32,000 bases of DNA, taken from NCBI RefSeq assembly GCF_000020025.1, contig NC_010628.1, forward strand, positions 5,340,001 through 5,372,000, given 5' to 3'. A program made the translations under genes and the position numbers. Under the pieces are notes generated by a model. The model saw only the letters and a program-made list of their open reading frames with translations, was not told the DNA's origin and did not search any database. This DNA is from Nostoc punctiforme PCC 73102. GTDB lineage: Bacteria > Cyanobacteriota > Cyanobacteriia > Cyanobacteriales > Nostocaceae. How positions within the stretch are numbered: position 1 is the stretch's first letter; each line of letters opens with the position of its first letter. Of this stretch, positions 9,881-31,767 are shown one piece after another.

Positions 9881-9908
9881 TTGCCTTTTGCCTTTTGCCT
9901 TTTGCCTT
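9881..9908. repeat. heptamer tandem repeat (TTGCCTT) x4
   Basis: There are four exact head-to-tail TTGCCTT units. An inverted relative (GGCAATAGGCAAGAAGGC) lies near 9727. Confidence 0.9.
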
Positions 9909-13302: not shown

Positions 13303-13358
13303 AGGAGTGATGAGTTAAAACTCCTCACTCCTAACTCCTAAATACTCACTTCTCACTT

Positions 13359-14204: not shown

Positions 14205-14325
14205 GGGATAGGGAATGGGGGATTGGGGATTGAAAAGAGGCAGAGGGGCAAGGAGCAGAGGGGAAAGAGGTATATTATTATTTTCCCCCTGCTCCCATGT
14301 CCCCTGTTTCTACTCCCAACGGGGC
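14205..14325. repeat. G-rich heptamer repeat (GGGATTG type) with a complementary C-rich arm
   Basis: GGGATAG GGAATGG GGGATTG GGGATTG is followed by CAGAGGGGCAAGGAGCAGAGGGG, an AT-rich loop, and then CCCCCTGCTCCCATGTCCCCTG. The element lies in the divergent region between mlaE and the 14615 gene. Confidence 0.7.
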
Positions 14326-16280: not shown

Positions 16281-16356
16281 GAGTTAGGAGTTAGGAGTGA
16301 GAAGTTGAGAGTTTGAACTCCTAACTTCTAACTCCTAACTTCTAACTCCTAACTTT
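16281..16356. repeat. inverted heptamer repeat block (CTCCTAA/CTTCTAA)
   Basis: GAGTTAGGAGTTAGGAGTGAGAAGTTGAGAG is followed by AACTCCTAACTTCTAACTCCTAACTTCTAACTCCTAAC, which can form a hairpin directly after the sppA stop. A related ACTCCTAACTCCTAA occurs at about 13325-13345. Confidence 0.8.
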
Positions 16357-23940: not shown

Positions 23941-24055
23941 AGTGGGGAATGGGGAAGAAGCAGGGGGGCAGGGAGCAGGGGAGCAGGGGAGGCAAAGGAA
24001 ATTAATAACCAATGCCCAATGCCCAATGCCCCATACCCCATGCCCAATCCCTTTA
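23941..24055. repeat. G-rich block plus heptamer repeat (CAATGCC/CAATCCC), the reverse-complement family of the 14205 repeat
   Basis: GGGGAATGGGGAAGAAGCAGGGGGGCAGGGAGCAGGGGAGCAGGGGAGG is followed by an AT-rich loop and then CAATGCC CAATGCC CAATGCC CCATACC CCATGCC CAATCCC (about 24010-24051). It lies between the convergent pyk and M61 stops, a likely bidirectional terminator region. Confidence 0.75.
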
Positions 24056-26145: not shown

Positions 26146-26418
26146 GGGCGATTGTTTATTGAATTCGGGCAGTCGTTTATTGAATTCGGGCAGTCGTTTA
26201 TTGAATTCGGGCAATCGTTTATTGAATTCGGGCAGTCGTTTATTGAATTCGGGCAATCGTTTATTGAATTCGGGCAATCGTTTATTGAATTCGGGCAATC
26301 GTTTATTGAATTCGGGCAATCGTTTATTGAATTCGGGCAATCGTTTATTGAATTCGGGCAATCGTTTATTGAATTCGGGCAATCGTTTATTGAATTCGGG
26401 CAATCGTTTATTGAATTC
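26146..26418. repeat. 13 x 21-bp perfect-register tandem repeat (GGGCARTCGTTTATTGAATTC)
   Basis: The units start at 26146 and recur every 21 nt up to 26398. The first unit is degenerate (GGGCGATTG...). Position 6 is G,G,A,G and then A in the last eight units. Every unit contains GAATTC. All six frames are open across the array. Confidence 0.95.
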
Positions 26419-26593
26419 GGATAAATCTCAGTAAAACCACGCAATAAATAAAATATTTTTTGTACTAAATATTTTAAACGATACTGAATATTGCGGGTGC
26501 TAATCACCCCGATTTTGTTTATCTTAATGGTGTAAAGACAGGATATAAGTCAGTTTTTATCCTAGTGCATGATAAAAAAAAGGAAGGTTATTT

Positions 26594-27365: not shown

Positions 27366-27641
27366 ATGCACGTTATTAGTCGCAAAATTCTACGAGAATT
27401 TTGTGAGGCACATGCAGATATAAAGGAAGCACTTTATGATTGGTATAGGATAGCAACTAAAGCTGAATGGAAAAATCTGCTTGAAGTTCAGGCTATTTAT
27501 CCAAAAGCAGAAGCAGTTGGTAACTTCACTGTGTTTAATATTAAAGGAAACAGTTACCGTTTGATTACTGATATTGTTTACGAAACTCAAAGAATCTATA
27601 TTAAATATGTCCTGAATCACGCTGAATATGATAAGGATTAA
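27366..27641 (+). CDS. higB: HigB-family type II toxin (RelE-fold mRNA interferase)
   Basis: The 91-aa sequence MHVISRKILREFCEAHADIKEAL..W......W.N......YP.A..VGNFTVFNIKGNSYRLITDIVYETQRIYIKYVLNHAEYDK is closely collinear with E. coli HigB (MHLITQKALKD...YVFNVGGNELRVV...CYIREVMTHKEYD). Confidence 0.9.
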   Translation: MHVISRKILREFCEAHADIKEALYDWYRIATKAEWKNLLEVQAIYPKAEAVGNFTVFNIKGNSYRLITDIVYETQRIYIKYVLNHAEYDKD

Positions 27642-27648
27642 TGGAAAA

Positions 27649-28044
27649 ATGACCCGTACTTTTAATCCAGAATCTTATGGTAAATTGCTAGCCGAGTATC
27701 AGCCAAAAATCATTACCACGAATGCAGAAAACGAACAAGCGATCGCACTCGCATTAACCTTAGAACATCGTCTTAATCGGACATCAGAAGAAGAGATGCT
27801 GTTACAACTGTTGGTAACATTAATTGAGCAGTTTGAAGAAACCCATTACCCAATTCTCAACGGTACACCCAATTCGATGTTAGTGCATCTGATGGACGCA
27901 CGTGATATGACGACTGAAGCATTAGCAGAGGTACTCGGATCTTTGGAAGTTGCTTTGCAAATTGTGAATGGCGGCACTATTAGTAAAACTCAAGCAGAAG
28001 CGTTGGCGGACTATTTTAATGTAAATGTCAGTTTATTTACCTAG
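27649..28044 (+). CDS. higA: HigA-family antitoxin with a C-terminal HTH
   Basis: The 131-aa protein from ATG 27649 starts 7 nt after the higB stop; the ORF track starts at 27628, overlapping higB. The C-terminus ISKTQAEALADYFNVNVSLF resembles the E. coli HigA HTH tail (LTLEHAKKLATRFGISPALF). Toxin-first gene order is typical of hig loci. Confidence 0.85.
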   Translation: MTRTFNPESYGKLLAEYQPKIITTNAENEQAIALALTLEHRLNRTSEEEMLLQLLVTLIEQFEETHYPILNGTPNSMLVHLMDARDMTTEALAEVLGSLEVALQIVNGGTISKTQAEALADYFNVNVSLFT

Positions 28045-28223: not shown

Positions 28224-29711
28224 CTATGTACCTGTATTAAAAATCCTATGTCCTAACCATCCCAAACCCAAGCTTAAACTAGAAGTACTAGCTAAAATTA
28301 GAAAAGTATGAAATTTGCTAAAAGATTCTCGTAATTTATCTTCAGCCCTAATCACAGTCACAAGCACAGCAAAAATCATAGCCGAAGCCACAGCCCCAGC
28401 CACAGCCACAGCCCCAGCCCCAGCCACAGCCACAGCCACAACCACAGCCACAACCACAGCCACAGCCACAGCCGCAGCCGCAGCCACAGCCGCAGCCCCA
28501 GCCCCAACCGTAGCCACAGCCGCAGCCACAGCCACAGCCACAGCCACAGCCCCAGCCACAGCCCCAGCCATAGCTCCAGCTCCAGCCACAGCCGAAGCCA
28601 CAGCCGAAGCCACAGCCCAAGCCCCAGCCCAAGCCCAAGTCCCAGCCCAAGCCACGGCCACAGCCCCAGCCACAGCTACAGCCCAAATTATGTACAGAGC
28701 GTTAGACGCGGCTAACAAGTAGCCTATCAATAGGTAGCTTAACAATACACCAATCAACCAGCCCCAAGGAATAACTCTAGGTGATTTAGTAGTTGGTTTA
28801 ACTCGAAGAATTGGCTTTGAGGGTAGCTTGACTTTGGAAGAAACAACTTCTTTTCTATAAACAGGACTAACAGGTAGTAGAGGCTGTTGCTTTTGGTGCT
28901 CTAACATTGCTAACCATACCTGCATTGACTGAGGGCGGTCTTTTGCCTCTAGCGCCATACCCTTAAGAATTGCTTGATTTAATTGATCGCTGATGCTTGG
29001 ATTAATTTGTTTAGGTGGAATTAGGAAAGTATTGTCTAGCTTGCGAGCCAGAGAAGTTGTAGGGCGTTGACCTGTCACCGCATAATAGAGTGTGGCAACC
29101 AGACAGTAAACATCGACCGTTGGATCTCGACTACCTCTGCTCATCTGCTCATAAGGCGCAAATGCCTCATTACCTGCAATACCTTTTGAACTCAAAGTTT
29201 TAGGCACGAGTTCTTTAGCAATGCCAAAGTCAATCAGAACCGCTTTGCCATTACTCCGCAGCATGATATTTCCGGGATGGGCATCTCTGTGTACTAAACC
29301 TGCCTGATGCACCACCACTAAAGCTTCCCCAATCTGGCGGATACAGGGTACAATCTCTGCTTCTGGTAACGCACCTCTACGTTTTACTGCCTCAAACAAA
29401 TTTTCTCCCGGTACAAAATCCATCACTAAGCAGTGGATAGTACCTTCCTTAAACAAGTCAATTACTCCCACAATATGAGGATGAGGGTCTTGAGACAAGC
29501 GTGCTAGTGTTCGCCCTTCTTGAATAAATCGGTCTATATACTTGCCATATTCTGGGTCAGGGCTGAGATATTCATTGGGTGTCTTGATGACAACTGTCCG
29601 GTTTAGCTCAACATGCAATGCCTTATAAGTAATCCCAAATCCCCCCTGTCCAAGGACTTTATCAATTACATATTTGCCACCTTGTAATCGTTGTCCAGTT
29701 GTCCAAGGCAT
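28224..29711 (-). CDS. Hanks-type Ser/Thr protein kinase with a C-terminal hydrophobic (Ala-X)n repeat tract
   Basis: The kinase subdomains are the G-loop LGQGGFGITY, VVIKT, catalytic loop VHRDAHPGNIM (nt 29268-29291), DFG (LIDFGIAKE) and FAPYE. After about 300 aa come a TM helix and then about 102 residues of A/V/G/W-rich repeat. The sequence ends ...MIFAVLVTVIRAEDKLRESFSKF... Confidence 0.85.
   Translation of the reverse strand: MPWTTGQRLQGGKYVIDKVLGQGGFGITYKALHVELNRTVVIKTPNEYLSPDPEYGKYIDRFIQEGRTLARLSQDPHPHIVGVIDLFKEGTIHCLVMDFVPGENLFEAVKRRGALPEAEIVPCIRQIGEALVVVHQAGLVHRDAHPGNIMLRSNGKAVLIDFGIAKELVPKTLSSKGIAGNEAFAPYEQMSRGSRDPTVDVYCLVATLYYAVTGQRPTTSLARKLDNTFLIPPKQINPSISDQLNQAILKGMALEAKDRPQSMQVWLAMLEHQKQQPLLPVSPVYRKEVVSSKVKLPSKPILRVKPTTKSPRVIPWGWLIGVLLSYLLIGYLLAASNALYIIWAVAVAGAVAVAWAGTWAWAGAWAVASAVASAVAGAGAMAGAVAGAVAVAVAVAAAVATVGAGAAAVAAAAAVAVAVVVAVVVAVAVAGAGAVAVAGAVASAMIFAVLVTVIRAEDKLRESFSKFHTFLILASTSSLSLGLGWLGHRIFNTGT
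28381..28686. repeat. 51 consecutive in-register hexanucleotide units (GCCACA and variants)
   Basis: Read by eye, the units are GCCGAA GCCACA GCCCCA GCCACA ... GCTACA GCCCAA, with no indel breaking the 6-nt register. The variants are GCCCCA, GCCGCA, ACCACA, GCCGAA, GCCCAA, GCCATA, GCTCCA, ACCGTA, GTCCCA and GCCACG. On the minus strand the units read as Ala-X dipeptides. Confidence 0.95.
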
Positions 29712-29899: not shown

Positions 29900-30925
29900 C
29901 TACGGTGTTTTTGTAGATGATGGACTGGGAAACTTTGACGGTTGATTAGATGGGTTGAAAATAGGAATCCAAGAAGGTATGGCTGCAAGTAAGCTTACAA
30001 AAGCAGCGATCGCAGCTATCACCACTCCCCAAACCTGAATTCTTCGCTCCCAATTTGGGTTAGTGTTAGAGGATACATTTAAGACAGGCTGAGGAGTTTC
30101 CCCTGTTAACCCCAAAGAGTCGAGCCATTCTCGCATTGATTGAGGACGCTGCTTAAAATCTAGCTTCATGCCTGTTAGAATTGCGCGGTTGGTGCGATCG
30201 CTAATCTGAGGATTAAGGTCTTTTGGAGACACTAAATGCTCACCGTTTAGTTTGCGATTTACTGCATCGACAGGTGTTTTCCCCGTCAGAAGTTTATAGA
30301 GCGTAGCTGCCAGTGAATAAATATCGCTATACGCATGAGTTATAGTACCTTTAGCATAAAGTTCAGGGGGTGTAAATCCATCAGACACTTCCTTGGTTCG
30401 CCTTGTGGTTAAGATATAGTCAAAATCTAGAGCTAGACCAAAATCTATTAATACCGCTTCTGACTGCCCCTCTCGGTTCCGCAACAAAATATTTCCTGGA
30501 TGCACATCCCGATGAATCAGTTCATTTTCATGTACAACTATCAGTGCTTCCCCAATTTGCTGAATGTAACGTAGTGCGTCAACTTCCGAAAGTTTTGGTG
30601 GACGGAGGTCAGCCAAACTCACTCCATCCACATACTCCATTACCAGACACGGATAATCTCCTTCCTTAAACGGTGTTCTGAACTGCACAATATGCTGATG
30701 CTGACATCGGGTGAGATTTACCGCCTCCTGCCAAAACATAGTCTCTAACCGAGCGCGTTCGGGCTGGCTAAGGGATTGGAGCAGATTATCATTTAAGGTT
30801 TTAATGACTAAGCGATCGCTATTTCTATTTTTTACCAAATAAGTAATACCAAATCGTCCCCTTCCTAATTCTTTTTCAATAGTATATTTGCCACCTTGCA
30901 ATTGATCACCTGCCACCCAAGCCAT
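29900..30925 (-). CDS. Hanks-type Ser/Thr protein kinase with a single C-terminal TM (paralog of 28224-29711)
   Basis: The start is set at ATG 30925 (MAWVAGDQLQGGKYTIEKELG) by alignment with the paralog's MPWTTGQRLQGGKYVIDKVLG; the ORF track starts at 30961. The motifs are LGRGRFGITY, LVIKT, IHRDVHPGNILL (nt 30491-30514), LIDFGLA and FTPPE. The C-terminal TM is VWGVVIAAIAAFVSLLAAI, followed by a Pro/Ser tail. Confidence 0.85.
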   Translation of the reverse strand: MAWVAGDQLQGGKYTIEKELGRGRFGITYLVKNRNSDRLVIKTLNDNLLQSLSQPERARLETMFWQEAVNLTRCQHQHIVQFRTPFKEGDYPCLVMEYVDGVSLADLRPPKLSEVDALRYIQQIGEALIVVHENELIHRDVHPGNILLRNREGQSEAVLIDFGLALDFDYILTTRRTKEVSDGFTPPELYAKGTITHAYSDIYSLAATLYKLLTGKTPVDAVNRKLNGEHLVSPKDLNPQISDRTNRAILTGMKLDFKQRPQSMREWLDSLGLTGETPQPVLNVSSNTNPNWERRIQVWGVVIAAIAAFVSLLAAIPSWIPIFNPSNQPSKFPSPSSTKTP

Positions 30926-31096
30926 CTTTGCAACTCCCAATATATTTGTATTAATCTTCACATAAGAAAGCCTGGAGAACTGGAACCTAGCTTTACAGAA
31001 ACAGCGCTATGTCTCAGAATAAGACTCTTTGCGTCTACACTTGCTAAACTAATTTTAAATCTTGAATAAAAGCAGAGAAAAAACAACCATAGAATT

Positions 31097-31351
31097 ATGG
31101 CTCAAATCTTAGTTGAAAATTTAGATCCCATTATTCTAGAAAAGCTAGAAACTCTTGCCAAACAACACGGTAGGTCTTTGCAAGAAGAACTAAAGCAGAT
31201 CCTACAACAAGCGGCTGAAAAAGCGACACACTATCACACTGGCGGCGACATGGAAAGAACCAGAGAAGCTGTAGCACGCGCTCAAGTTAGATATACAGGA
31301 AAAATTTTCAGTGACAGTACTGAACTTATCCGCGAGGATAGAGAACGGTGA
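31097..31351 (+). CDS. vapB: ribbon-helix-helix antitoxin (VapB/FitA-like)
   Basis: The 84-aa sequence MAQILVENLDPIILEKLETLAKQHGRSLQEELKQIL shows the typical RHH N-terminus. Its stop overlaps the PIN gene start as GTGA (31348-31351). Confidence 0.8.
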   Translation: MAQILVENLDPIILEKLETLAKQHGRSLQEELKQILQQAAEKATHYHTGGDMERTREAVARAQVRYTGKIFSDSTELIREDRER

Positions 31352-31767
31352 GTCAGTATGTTTTAGATGCTAGCATTGCCATAAAGTGGTTCATCCCTGA
31401 AGTCTACTCTGATGCAGCTAGGCGTTTACTAGCAAGTAATCATACTTTCCTAGTTCCAGATTTTTTCTTCCCAGAAGTGGGAAACGTCTTGTGGAAACAA
31501 GTCCGTCGTGGTGAAGACACTGCTGAAAATGCAAGACAAATATTAGCAGATTTAAATGCAGTTCCTGTAGAGGTGTACTTATCTCAGCTGTTAATGCCAC
31601 TTGCTTTAGATATTGCCCTTCAGAGCGATCGTGCAGTGTATGACAGTTTATACTTAGTCCTTGCTATTACTCAACAATGCCAGATGGTAACAGCAGACGA
31701 AAAATTTTACAACGCACTGAAAACCAGTAGCTACGCAAGTAATCTTTTATGGGTAGAGAATATTTAA
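31348..31767 (+). CDS. vapC: PIN-domain toxin VapC
   Basis: The 139-aa ORF starts at GTG. The N-terminus YVLDASIAIKW carries the first PIN acidic residue. Later conserved D residues occur in YDSLYLVLA and MVTADEKF. Confidence 0.85.
   Translation: MSQYVLDASIAIKWFIPEVYSDAARRLLASNHTFLVPDFFFPEVGNVLWKQVRRGEDTAENARQILADLNAVPVEVYLSQLLMPLALDIALQSDRAVYDSLYLVLAITQQCQMVTADEKFYNALKTSSYASNLLWVENI

Follow-up and report, generated by a model that had tools for sequence, protein, structure and literature searches.

How does a long hexanucleotide repeat come to lie inside the reading frame of a protein kinase, and is it read? The question was raised by kinase 1, a Hanks-type Ser/Thr kinase gene (28224–29711, minus strand; 495 aa and a stop codon) in a 32,000-nt stretch of Nostoc punctiforme PCC 73102 DNA (NC_010628.1, positions 5,340,001 to 5,372,000), here called the window. 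Its product consists of a kinase domain, a linker and a C-terminal membrane module, which holds the tract encoded by the repeat.

Our reading, to which we give a probability of roughly 0.7, is that the repeat is an in-frame coding microsatellite, (GCT-KKG)n, translated into (Ala-Val/Trp/Gly)n in the middle of a conserved and unannotated C-terminal membrane module, homogenised by slippage and encoding transmembrane helices. That the array is a real, translated and family-wide coding microsatellite is held with high confidence. That it encodes low-complexity transmembrane helices, in place of the central ones in an anchor module with five helices, is held with moderate confidence.

The hexanucleotide array and its reading frame

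Tandem Repeats Finder reported the repeat at 28386–28683 (period 6, 49.7 copies, 81% matches, score 323). Read in the kinase 1 frame on the minus strand, the in-register array covered 28383–28682 and consisted of 50 units of the form GCT-NNG, which encode (Ala-X)50 at residues 344–443. The initial annotation had recognised the repeat and quoted its residues exactly, but counted 51 units and about 102 residues; the actual numbers were 50 and 100.

The most frequent units were GCTGTG (21 of 50), GCTGGG (9), GCTGCG (4), GCTTGG (3) and GCTTCG (3), with 10 others. Hexamer positions 1, 2, 3 and 6 were near-invariant (49, 47, 49 and 47 of 50). Variation was confined to positions 4 (G 41, T 7, A 2) and 5 (T 26, G 16, C 8), which are the first two bases of the X codon. 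There was no A at position 5, and Glu, Lys, Gln and stop codons were missing from the tract for this reason. The third codon positions (T and G) were 94–98% conserved, more than the first and second positions, which is the opposite of ordinary coding DNA.

The pattern (GCTKKG)x3, with at most one mismatch, occurred 35 times in the window, always within the tract, against 0.01 occurrences expected from shuffled sequences. Short units of equal length were therefore present far above chance, as expected of the tandem array of a coding microsatellite or contingency locus. The GC content was 0.68 in the tract and about 0.40 around it.

Four of the six frames were open across the tract. Plus frame 2 contained two stops and minus frame 1 contained one, so the earlier statement that all other frames are open was wrong. 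The kinase 1 open reading frame (ORF) was the sole long ORF containing the array.

The initial annotation had also allowed for an assembly artefact. The exact 495-aa protein was recorded on 47 contigs, one of them 8,234,322 bp long, in a look-up that detects identical sequences only, and the kinase 1 gene DNA in two independent Logan contigs was identical to that of the window. These results excluded an artefact in the source strain.

The array in related kinases

A homologue search yielded 706 proteins at E <= 1e-20, and the architecture was read from the best 120 of these. Most of the full-length homologues (400–500 aa) among them came from Nostoc, Tolypothrix, Calothrix, Brasilonema, Trichormus, Dolichospermum and relatives. 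The common architecture of the Nostocales homologues was a kinase domain, a basic Pro-rich linker, a conserved helix (RIIPWGWLIGVLLSYLLIGYLLAASNAPY), an Ala-X tract and a conserved C-terminal end (GDKLxKSFSKFHTFLILASTSSLGLGLGWLGHRIFNTGS). The tract was rich in Val, Trp and Gly, varied from about 10 to about 150 residues, and could not be aligned between species.

More than 100 Nostocales homologues carried the tract at the same site, between the 'IIPWGWL...' helix and the 'KLxKSFSKFHTFLILASTSSLGLGLGWL' helix, with different lengths and unit orders. In more than 100 homologues the conserved C-terminal motif followed downstream, in frame with the kinase. This indicated that the tract is translated in the kinase frame. 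Together with the lack of codons with A at the second position in the window tract, it answered the doubt about translation that the initial annotation had drawn from the open frames.

A scan with the C-terminal alignment, one genome per species, gave 40 loci. Nearly all were from heterocyst-forming filamentous cyanobacteria by record title; the exceptions were metagenome bins labelled Chroococcales, Acetobacteraceae and 'uncultured bacterium', and Plectonema radiosum. The regular-expression anchors that delimited the tract failed on about one-quarter of the loci and proteins, and the counts that follow refer to delimitable sequences only.

In the 29 related species loci with a delimited tract, the ORF was intact in every case and nearly all of the tract Ala codons were GCT (for example 35/35, 34/34, 54/55 and 32/32; 48/53 in the window, which was delimited along with its own two contigs). 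Outside the tract the same ORFs used GCA, GCT, GCG and GCC in mixture. When the tract codons were pooled (n = 1852), GCT made up 38.9%, GTG 20.5%, TGG 9.6% and GGG 9.3%, and Ala was encoded by 721 GCT against 21 other codons (97% GCT). Base A was rare on the coding strand (214/5553), and charged residues made up 2.2% of the tracts.

Variants one step away from GCT that changed the amino acid and kept the T (GTT 60, ACT 39, GGT 26, CCT 9, TCT 8) far outnumbered the synonymous ones, although this comparison is rough, as some GTT and GGT may stand at the X position. Protein-level selection for an Ala-rich composition could not fix a single synonymous codon across genera. Continual homogenisation of the units would be the simplest explanation for it, and would also leave the third codon positions more conserved than the first and second.

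In several draft genomes the orthologous gene was split at the tract by contig ends (L012 with L023, both Nostoc sp. LEGE 12450; L032; L038), and some partial 'kinase' proteins in the database ended inside the tract (for example P0022, P0023, P0042 and P0081). The splitting showed that the tract DNA is repetitive in those genomes too. Short-read assemblies repeatedly break at this repeat.

In every Nostocales genome examined, the orthologous kinase had the array at this position. Judged from these sequences, the array is an ancestral, family-wide trait of the Nostocales orthologues, built from the same GCT-NNG codons everywhere, and not a local recent expansion. The earlier description of a microsatellite-like array in the membrane-coding part of a Ser/Thr kinase thus held, but its interpretation as a recent event peculiar to this gene, in comparison with the neighbouring kinase 2, did not. 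Likewise, such a tract is highly unusual for bacterial kinases in general, as had been stated, but is the rule within this family.

Length change and homogenisation of the tract

Slippage keeps the frame because the unit is 6 nt long, as had been proposed, and the predicted variation in unit number was found among orthologues and strains. Frameshift on/off switching of the classical phase-variation type was not seen with this 6-nt unit in the 29 delimited loci, all with intact ORFs. Counted in residues, the distance between the anchors flanking the tract was even for 22 of the 29 loci, and the same held for 43 of 51 proteins whose Ala alternation was strong. Such an excess would be expected if length changes mostly involve whole hexamers (2 aa).

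The closest comparison was between Nostoc calcicola FACHB-389 and FACHB-3891, in which 4.2 kb of upstream flank were 99.8% identical and 2.2 kb of downstream flank 99.7%. The two tracts shared both ends and differed in length by 90 nt (15 units); both are draft assemblies, and a collapse in one of them is possible. Nostoc sp. EkiNYC01 had a third, distinct tract, with flanks about 97–98% identical in DNA (98.9% in protein) to the two N. calcicola strains. In two metagenomic Dolichospermum-like alleles (P0086 and P0094), the 280-aa flanks were 100% identical and the tracts just 41%. Tract length and unit order changed much faster than the flanking sequence. Turnover was not uniform, as the tracts of two related species (L005 and L019) had the same length of 64 residues and were 88% identical.

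The usual tract length in the family was 60–70 residues, which is what three minimal membrane spans would need. The window allele, with 100 repeat residues and about 117 hydrophobic ones, lay at the long end.

The membrane module

In kinase 1 the tract was embedded in a single continuous hydrophobic stretch (residues 311–458). As the initial annotation had described, it was preceded by a transmembrane helix and followed by a further hydrophobic segment and a short tail, and the kinase 2 translation had only one transmembrane segment. All elements of the module lie on the minus strand.

The first conserved helix, WGWLIGVLLSYLLIGYLLAA (residues 316–335; 28707–28766), followed a Lys/Arg/Pro-rich linker and was itself followed by SNALYIIW; W6, L9, Y21 and L23 were invariant in alignment A1. 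The signature of this helix after a basic linker, (R)IIPWxWL, was present in kinase 1 as PRVIPWGWLIGVLLSYLLIGYLLAA. Beyond the array, the hydrophobic region continued without repetition as AMIFAVLVTVI (residues 444–454; 28350–28382). The conserved charged segment came next, RAEDKLRESFSKFH (residues 455–468; 28308–28349; consensus GDKLxKSFSKFH), in which L150 and F154 were invariant and S153 nearly so.

The last conserved helix, TFLILASTSSLSLGLGWLG (residues 469–487; 28251–28307), was the best-conserved part of the module profile, and the protein ended in a short tail, HRIFNTGT, before the stop codon (28224–28250). The C-terminal signature segment KLxxSFSxFHTFLILxxTSxxGLGLGWL was found at the protein end as DKLRESFSKFHTFLILASTSSLSLGLGWLGHRIF.

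Stand-alone relatives of the module without repeats (P0248, P0260 and P0262) had five hydrophobic segments. Their order was a basic N-terminus, two helices with a short Pro turn, a positive loop, a third helix, an acidic loop, a fourth helix, a basic 'GDRLxxxFxRF' segment and the last helix. By the positive-inside rule, the loop charges fit a cytoplasmic location of both the N-terminus and the GDKL segment. AlphaFold modelled P0260 with five helices, at a predicted local distance difference test score (pLDDT) of 79.9 and a predicted template modelling score (pTM) of 0.70. For the window module the model was all helix at a pLDDT of 74, and the helices broke exactly at AGAGAM, VGAGA and GAG.

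Between the two conserved helices, the non-repetitive relatives thus had three membrane helices, whereas the window had one hydrophobic stretch of about 117 residues, which AlphaFold divided into four helices at low pTM. The Ala-X tract of the Nostocales kinases occupied the place of helices 2–4. Because the non-repetitive relatives are five-helix membrane proteins, we interpreted the tract as most likely encoding low-complexity transmembrane helices in place of the middle ones.

Fusion partners of the module

The module, defined here by profile A1 of the C-terminal region, was searched for among 1.84 billion representative proteins and gave 224 matches at E <= 1e-3. Besides the kinases, it was fused to TIR_2 (P0151, P0154 and P0267), the caspase domain Peptidase_C14 (P0153 and P0172), CHAT (P0165 and P0249) and DnaJ (P0238). 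The stand-alone proteins were about 125–190 aa long, and many of the shorter matches were probably contig fragments. The GCT-NNG pattern was also found in the caspase-fused (GCT 14/15) and TIR-fused (25/30) members whose DNA was retrieved, and the partner codons mostly ended in G.

In one locus (L043, 2647–4578) a caspase (Peptidase_C14) protein that ended in the same module was encoded immediately downstream of a gene with a Pepco domain (PF24393). This arrangement may point to a system of the conflict or cell-death type.

Sequence searches of Pfam, NCBIfam and the PDB did not cover the module, and a Foldseek search of the PDB with the five-helix model gave no match better than E = 0.9. C-terminal sorting signals (PEP-CTERM and similar) were not detected: NCBIfam had no match outside the kinase domain at E <= 0.01, and none at all in the stand-alone protein P0142.

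A search of a 5.8-billion-protein database with the tract alone returned nothing at E <= 1e-3, presumably owing to the composition correction of HMMER, and was uninformative on other families. A metagenome DNA scan for (GCTKKG)x6 found generic pure microsatellites, none of which was followed by the module motif among the matches listed (at least 120), and this pattern was too unspecific. No description of the tract or the module was found in the literature searched (open-access papers and bioRxiv preprints). Accessory domains were listed in a 2007 survey of Ser/Thr kinases in cyanobacteria, and this module was not among them (PMC2176072). On sequence grounds, the module appears to be a previously undescribed, unannotated cyanobacterial membrane anchor on kinase, TIR, caspase and CHAT proteins.

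Proposed explanation and points against it

We propose that the array is continually homogenised and resized, through slippage during replication or through unequal recombination among its units, which would amount to concerted evolution. Selection would keep just the frame, the hydrophobicity, a mixture of units with Val, Trp and Gly, and an approximate length class. The product would form low-complexity transmembrane helices in place of helices 2–4 of an ancestral five-helix module, and the Gly-rich (Ala-Gly) units may form the turns between them. Ala at every second residue would give continuous small-xxx-small packing faces, on which helices could pack tightly or self-associate. The module would anchor the cytoplasmic kinase at the membrane and probably promote helix–helix self-association; in the paralogous proteins it would anchor TIR, caspase, CHAT or DnaJ domains instead.

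Several observations weigh against this explanation or parts of it. The pTM of the window module model was low (0.30), and the method serves low-complexity sequence poorly. The model split the region from the first helix to the charged segment into four helices, and an odd number is needed for the topology of the five-helix relatives.

The anchor-to-anchor distances fell into groups of 48–72, 84–120 and 132–153 aa, but with 51 proteins these are suggestive only. The idea that tract lengths lie at odd multiples of one membrane span is put forward as a hypothesis; the histogram is compatible with it, and the four-helix split of the window tract does not fit. Some of the length differences between strains could be due to collapse in short-read assembly, as several assemblies break at the tract. 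The conservation of third positions could instead mean a constraint at the DNA or RNA level.

The last point is the tract of Nostoc sp. ATCC 43529 (L036). It was 139 residues long and contained long (Ala-Glu), (Ala-Lys) and (Ala-Gln) runs from GCT-GAG/AAG/CAG, the charged runs alternating with hydrophobic ones. It was the sole clearly polar version seen, and by its sequence the hydrophobicity of the tract is not absolute. On the other hand, it showed that A can arise and expand at position 5, and the scarcity of A there in the other tracts therefore reflects selection at the protein level.

Alternative explanations

Among the alternatives, adaptive hypervariability fared best, and we regard it as unlikely. 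Rapid in-frame change of the tract would tune the signalling, or the strain-specific self-association or identity, of the kinase, TIR, caspase and CHAT proteins, as a microsatellite counterpart of the diversity-generating retroelements (DGRs). The site is repetitive across the whole order, although microsatellites normally decay. The tract also differs between near-identical strains, and its amino-acid-changing unit variants far outnumber the synonymous ones.

The module has the same set of partner domains as the C-terminal CLec domains that DGRs diversify in cyanobacteria (PMC7517822), and kinase paralogues with FGE-sulfatase/CLec-type C-termini were among the homologues (P0080 and P0082). 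On the other hand, a low-complexity hydrophobic stretch is an unlikely surface for recognising ligands or partners. The window allele was identical on all 47 contigs, although that look-up finds identical sequences only, and L005 and L019 kept the same 64-aa length and 88% tract identity. Slippage with weak selection accounts for the data without any benefit.

A stronger version is that a dedicated, self-renewing microsatellite generates strain-specific intramembrane variants that set self-association, signalling threshold or kin specificity, and so forms a second hypervariation system parallel to the DGRs. We hold this version to be rather doubtful.

A constraint on the nucleic acid is improbable in our judgement. 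The GCT-KKG repeat would then act at the DNA or RNA level, for instance as a hot spot of recombination, by forming a non-B structure or by setting the speed of translation, and the peptide would be a tolerated by-product. The repeat is G+T-rich and almost free of A, with GGGG runs. Its third positions are conserved in the window tract (94–98%) and its Ala codons are uniform across genera (97% GCT), with X-codon positions 1 and 2 varying freely, and the pattern recurs in module copies on unrelated domains. However, concerted evolution by unit slippage yields the same pattern, and the scarcity of charged-residue and stop codons in the kinase frame shows that the protein is under selection. Distant members of the module, moreover, keep the membrane region without the repeat.

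We consider it quite improbable that the alternating Ala-X sequence forms stacked beta-strands outside the membrane or at its surface and drives amyloid-like self-assembly. In a strand, the alternation would line up Ala along one face, Val is a beta-branched residue, and the sequence resembles the crystalline blocks of silk fibroin. Against these, AlphaFold predicted helices only, and the non-repetitive relatives have ordinary hydrophobic helices, joined by short charged loops, in the equivalent region. The tract is directly flanked by two transmembrane helices, and there was no signal for exporting 100 hydrophobic residues.

An assembly error, an end of the kinase before the array, or a real gene in another frame would agree with the four open frames and with the draft assemblies that break at the tract, but the chance is negligible given the identical allele on 47 contigs (one of 8.23 Mb), the frame kept into the conserved C-terminal motif in more than 100 homologues, and a plus-strand ORF without independent support.

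The kinase genes and their neighbourhood

The protein kinase domain of kinase 1 (residues 14–263; 28923–29672, minus strand) matched PF00069 with 121.9 bits (E 4.1e-35), compared with a Pfam gathering cut-off of 31.7; kinase 2 scored 123.3 bits. The motifs GQGGFG, VVIK, HRD and DFG were all present in the kinase 1 translation. In the catalytic loop, HRDxKxxN, the Lys was replaced by His both in kinase 1 (HRDAHPGN, 29220–29243, minus strand) and in kinase 2 (HRDVHPGN, about 30430–30460, minus strand). The His was common to many of the kinase homologues.

Kinase 2 (29900–30961, minus strand; 353 aa) is the upstream paralogue with a single ordinary transmembrane segment. Of the 38 related loci with a kinase match, about 35 had kinase 2 followed by kinase 1. 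From gene order and sequence, kinase 2 is taken to be a conserved operon partner with a different C-terminus, and not the state of kinase 1 before expansion.

Five homologues of 718–739 aa (P0013, P0016, P0038, P0044 and P0047) had two tandem kinase domains followed by the same membrane module. By their domain order they look like fusions of the kinase 2 and kinase 1 gene pair; their second domain had the canonical HRDVKPAN. Other close paralogues of kinase 1 ended in FGE-sulfatase/CLec-type or GUN4 domains (P0080, P0082 and P0083).

The kinase operon was flanked by two toxin–antitoxin-like pairs (27366–28044 and 31097–31767; Pfam labels from the identical contig L001). These comprised a HigB_toxin family ORF overlapping a 138-aa partner, and a FitA-like ribbon-helix-helix (RHH) ORF overlapping a PIN-domain ORF. 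The HigB gene was syntenic in other Nostoc genomes. Uma2-family (PF05685) genes adjoined module genes (L001, 27–728; L165 and L166, 1047–2646; L044, 291–848 and 2141–2716), and these neighbours were found beside the kinase pair as well as beside a TIR-fused member of the module.

A 21-nt unit, GGGCAATCGTTTATTGAATTC, was repeated 13.1 times with 97% identity at 26146–26420, and the ORFs in four frames there were simply due to the repeat. In three other Nostoc genomes (L011, L165 and L166) an array of this unit, with different copy numbers, was present in the syntenic place downstream of the kinase pair.

Implications

These results point to a widespread, unannotated membrane module of multicellular cyanobacteria that would tether kinases and domains of the cell-death and defence type (TIR, caspase and CHAT). 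The core of the module is encoded by a microsatellite that persists across the order while it turns over within species. It would show, as an experiment of nature, how little sequence information suffices for a transmembrane segment, and would be a clear case of concerted evolution within coding DNA, in which third positions are better conserved than the first two. If the variability is adaptive, it would add a new way of making bacterial signalling proteins hypervariable.

On the practical side, the tract breaks short-read assemblies and could serve as a strain-typing marker in Nostoc. Standard tryptic proteomics is unlikely to detect it, because it contains no Lys or Arg.

Comparison with known systems

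Bacterial surface and membrane proteins offer familiar examples of in-frame coding tandem repeats whose length changes through slipped-strand mispairing. The array resembles them in having short units within an ORF, a length that is a multiple of three, a preserved frame and a unit number that differs between close strains. The known cases, however, are mostly hydrophilic surface spacers, adhesin repeats or frameshift switches, whereas the tract here is hydrophobic and probably intramembrane; it is also repetitive with the same codons across the order and in module copies on different domains. What is unusual here is the hydrophobic, probably intramembrane product, the retention of the array at one site with one codon pattern across the order, and its travel with a module that is fused to multiple domains.

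As to the product, WALP-type (Leu-Ala)n peptides flanked by Trp serve as model transmembrane peptides, and GxxxG-like small-xxx-small motifs are known from helix packing. The tract likewise alternates Ala with hydrophobic residues and interspersed Trp, has Ala at i and i+4 throughout, and is compatible with membrane helices. Those are designed peptides or short motifs, in contrast to a long natural tract; we know of no natural example of such a sequence of 60–120 residues encoded by a microsatellite.

Silk fibroin (Gly-Ala)n has a similarly strict Ala dipeptide alternation and repetitive DNA. It is, however, a secreted eukaryotic beta-sheet fibre, whereas the tract is a Val- and Trp-rich segment between transmembrane helices, with a predicted helical structure of its own; silk-like beta-strands did not appear in the all-helical AlphaFold prediction.

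Short tandem repeats are typical of heterocystous cyanobacteria. The short tandemly repeated repetitive (STRR) sequences have 7-nt units and are mostly intergenic (PMC4692102), unlike the kinase 1 array, a coding array of 6-nt units that goes with a single protein module. The window also contained heptanucleotide arrays of TTGCCTT (9881–9908), ACTCCTC (13320–13357), GGGATTG (14205–14232), AACTCCT (16281–16355) and CCAATGC (24004–24048), which look like the STRR repeats.

A further parallel is with the DGRs. Their targets in cyanobacteria are CLec domains that are attached to Ser/Thr kinase, orthocaspase, TIR and CHAT domains (PMC7517822). The DGR-diversified CLec/FGE-sulfatase proteins share with the tract proteins a set of N-terminal signalling and cell-death domains, a hypervariable C-terminal part and a concentration in filamentous cyanobacteria (PMC7517822). 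No other copy of the tract that could serve as a DGR template repeat was found in the window, to which the search for a reverse transcriptase gene was also confined. DGR mutagenesis targets adenines, whereas the coding strand of the tract is almost free of A (214/5553), and the product is a low-complexity hydrophobic sequence rather than a folded ligand-binding domain. The parallel between the tract module and the DGR targets is suggestive, with a different mechanism.

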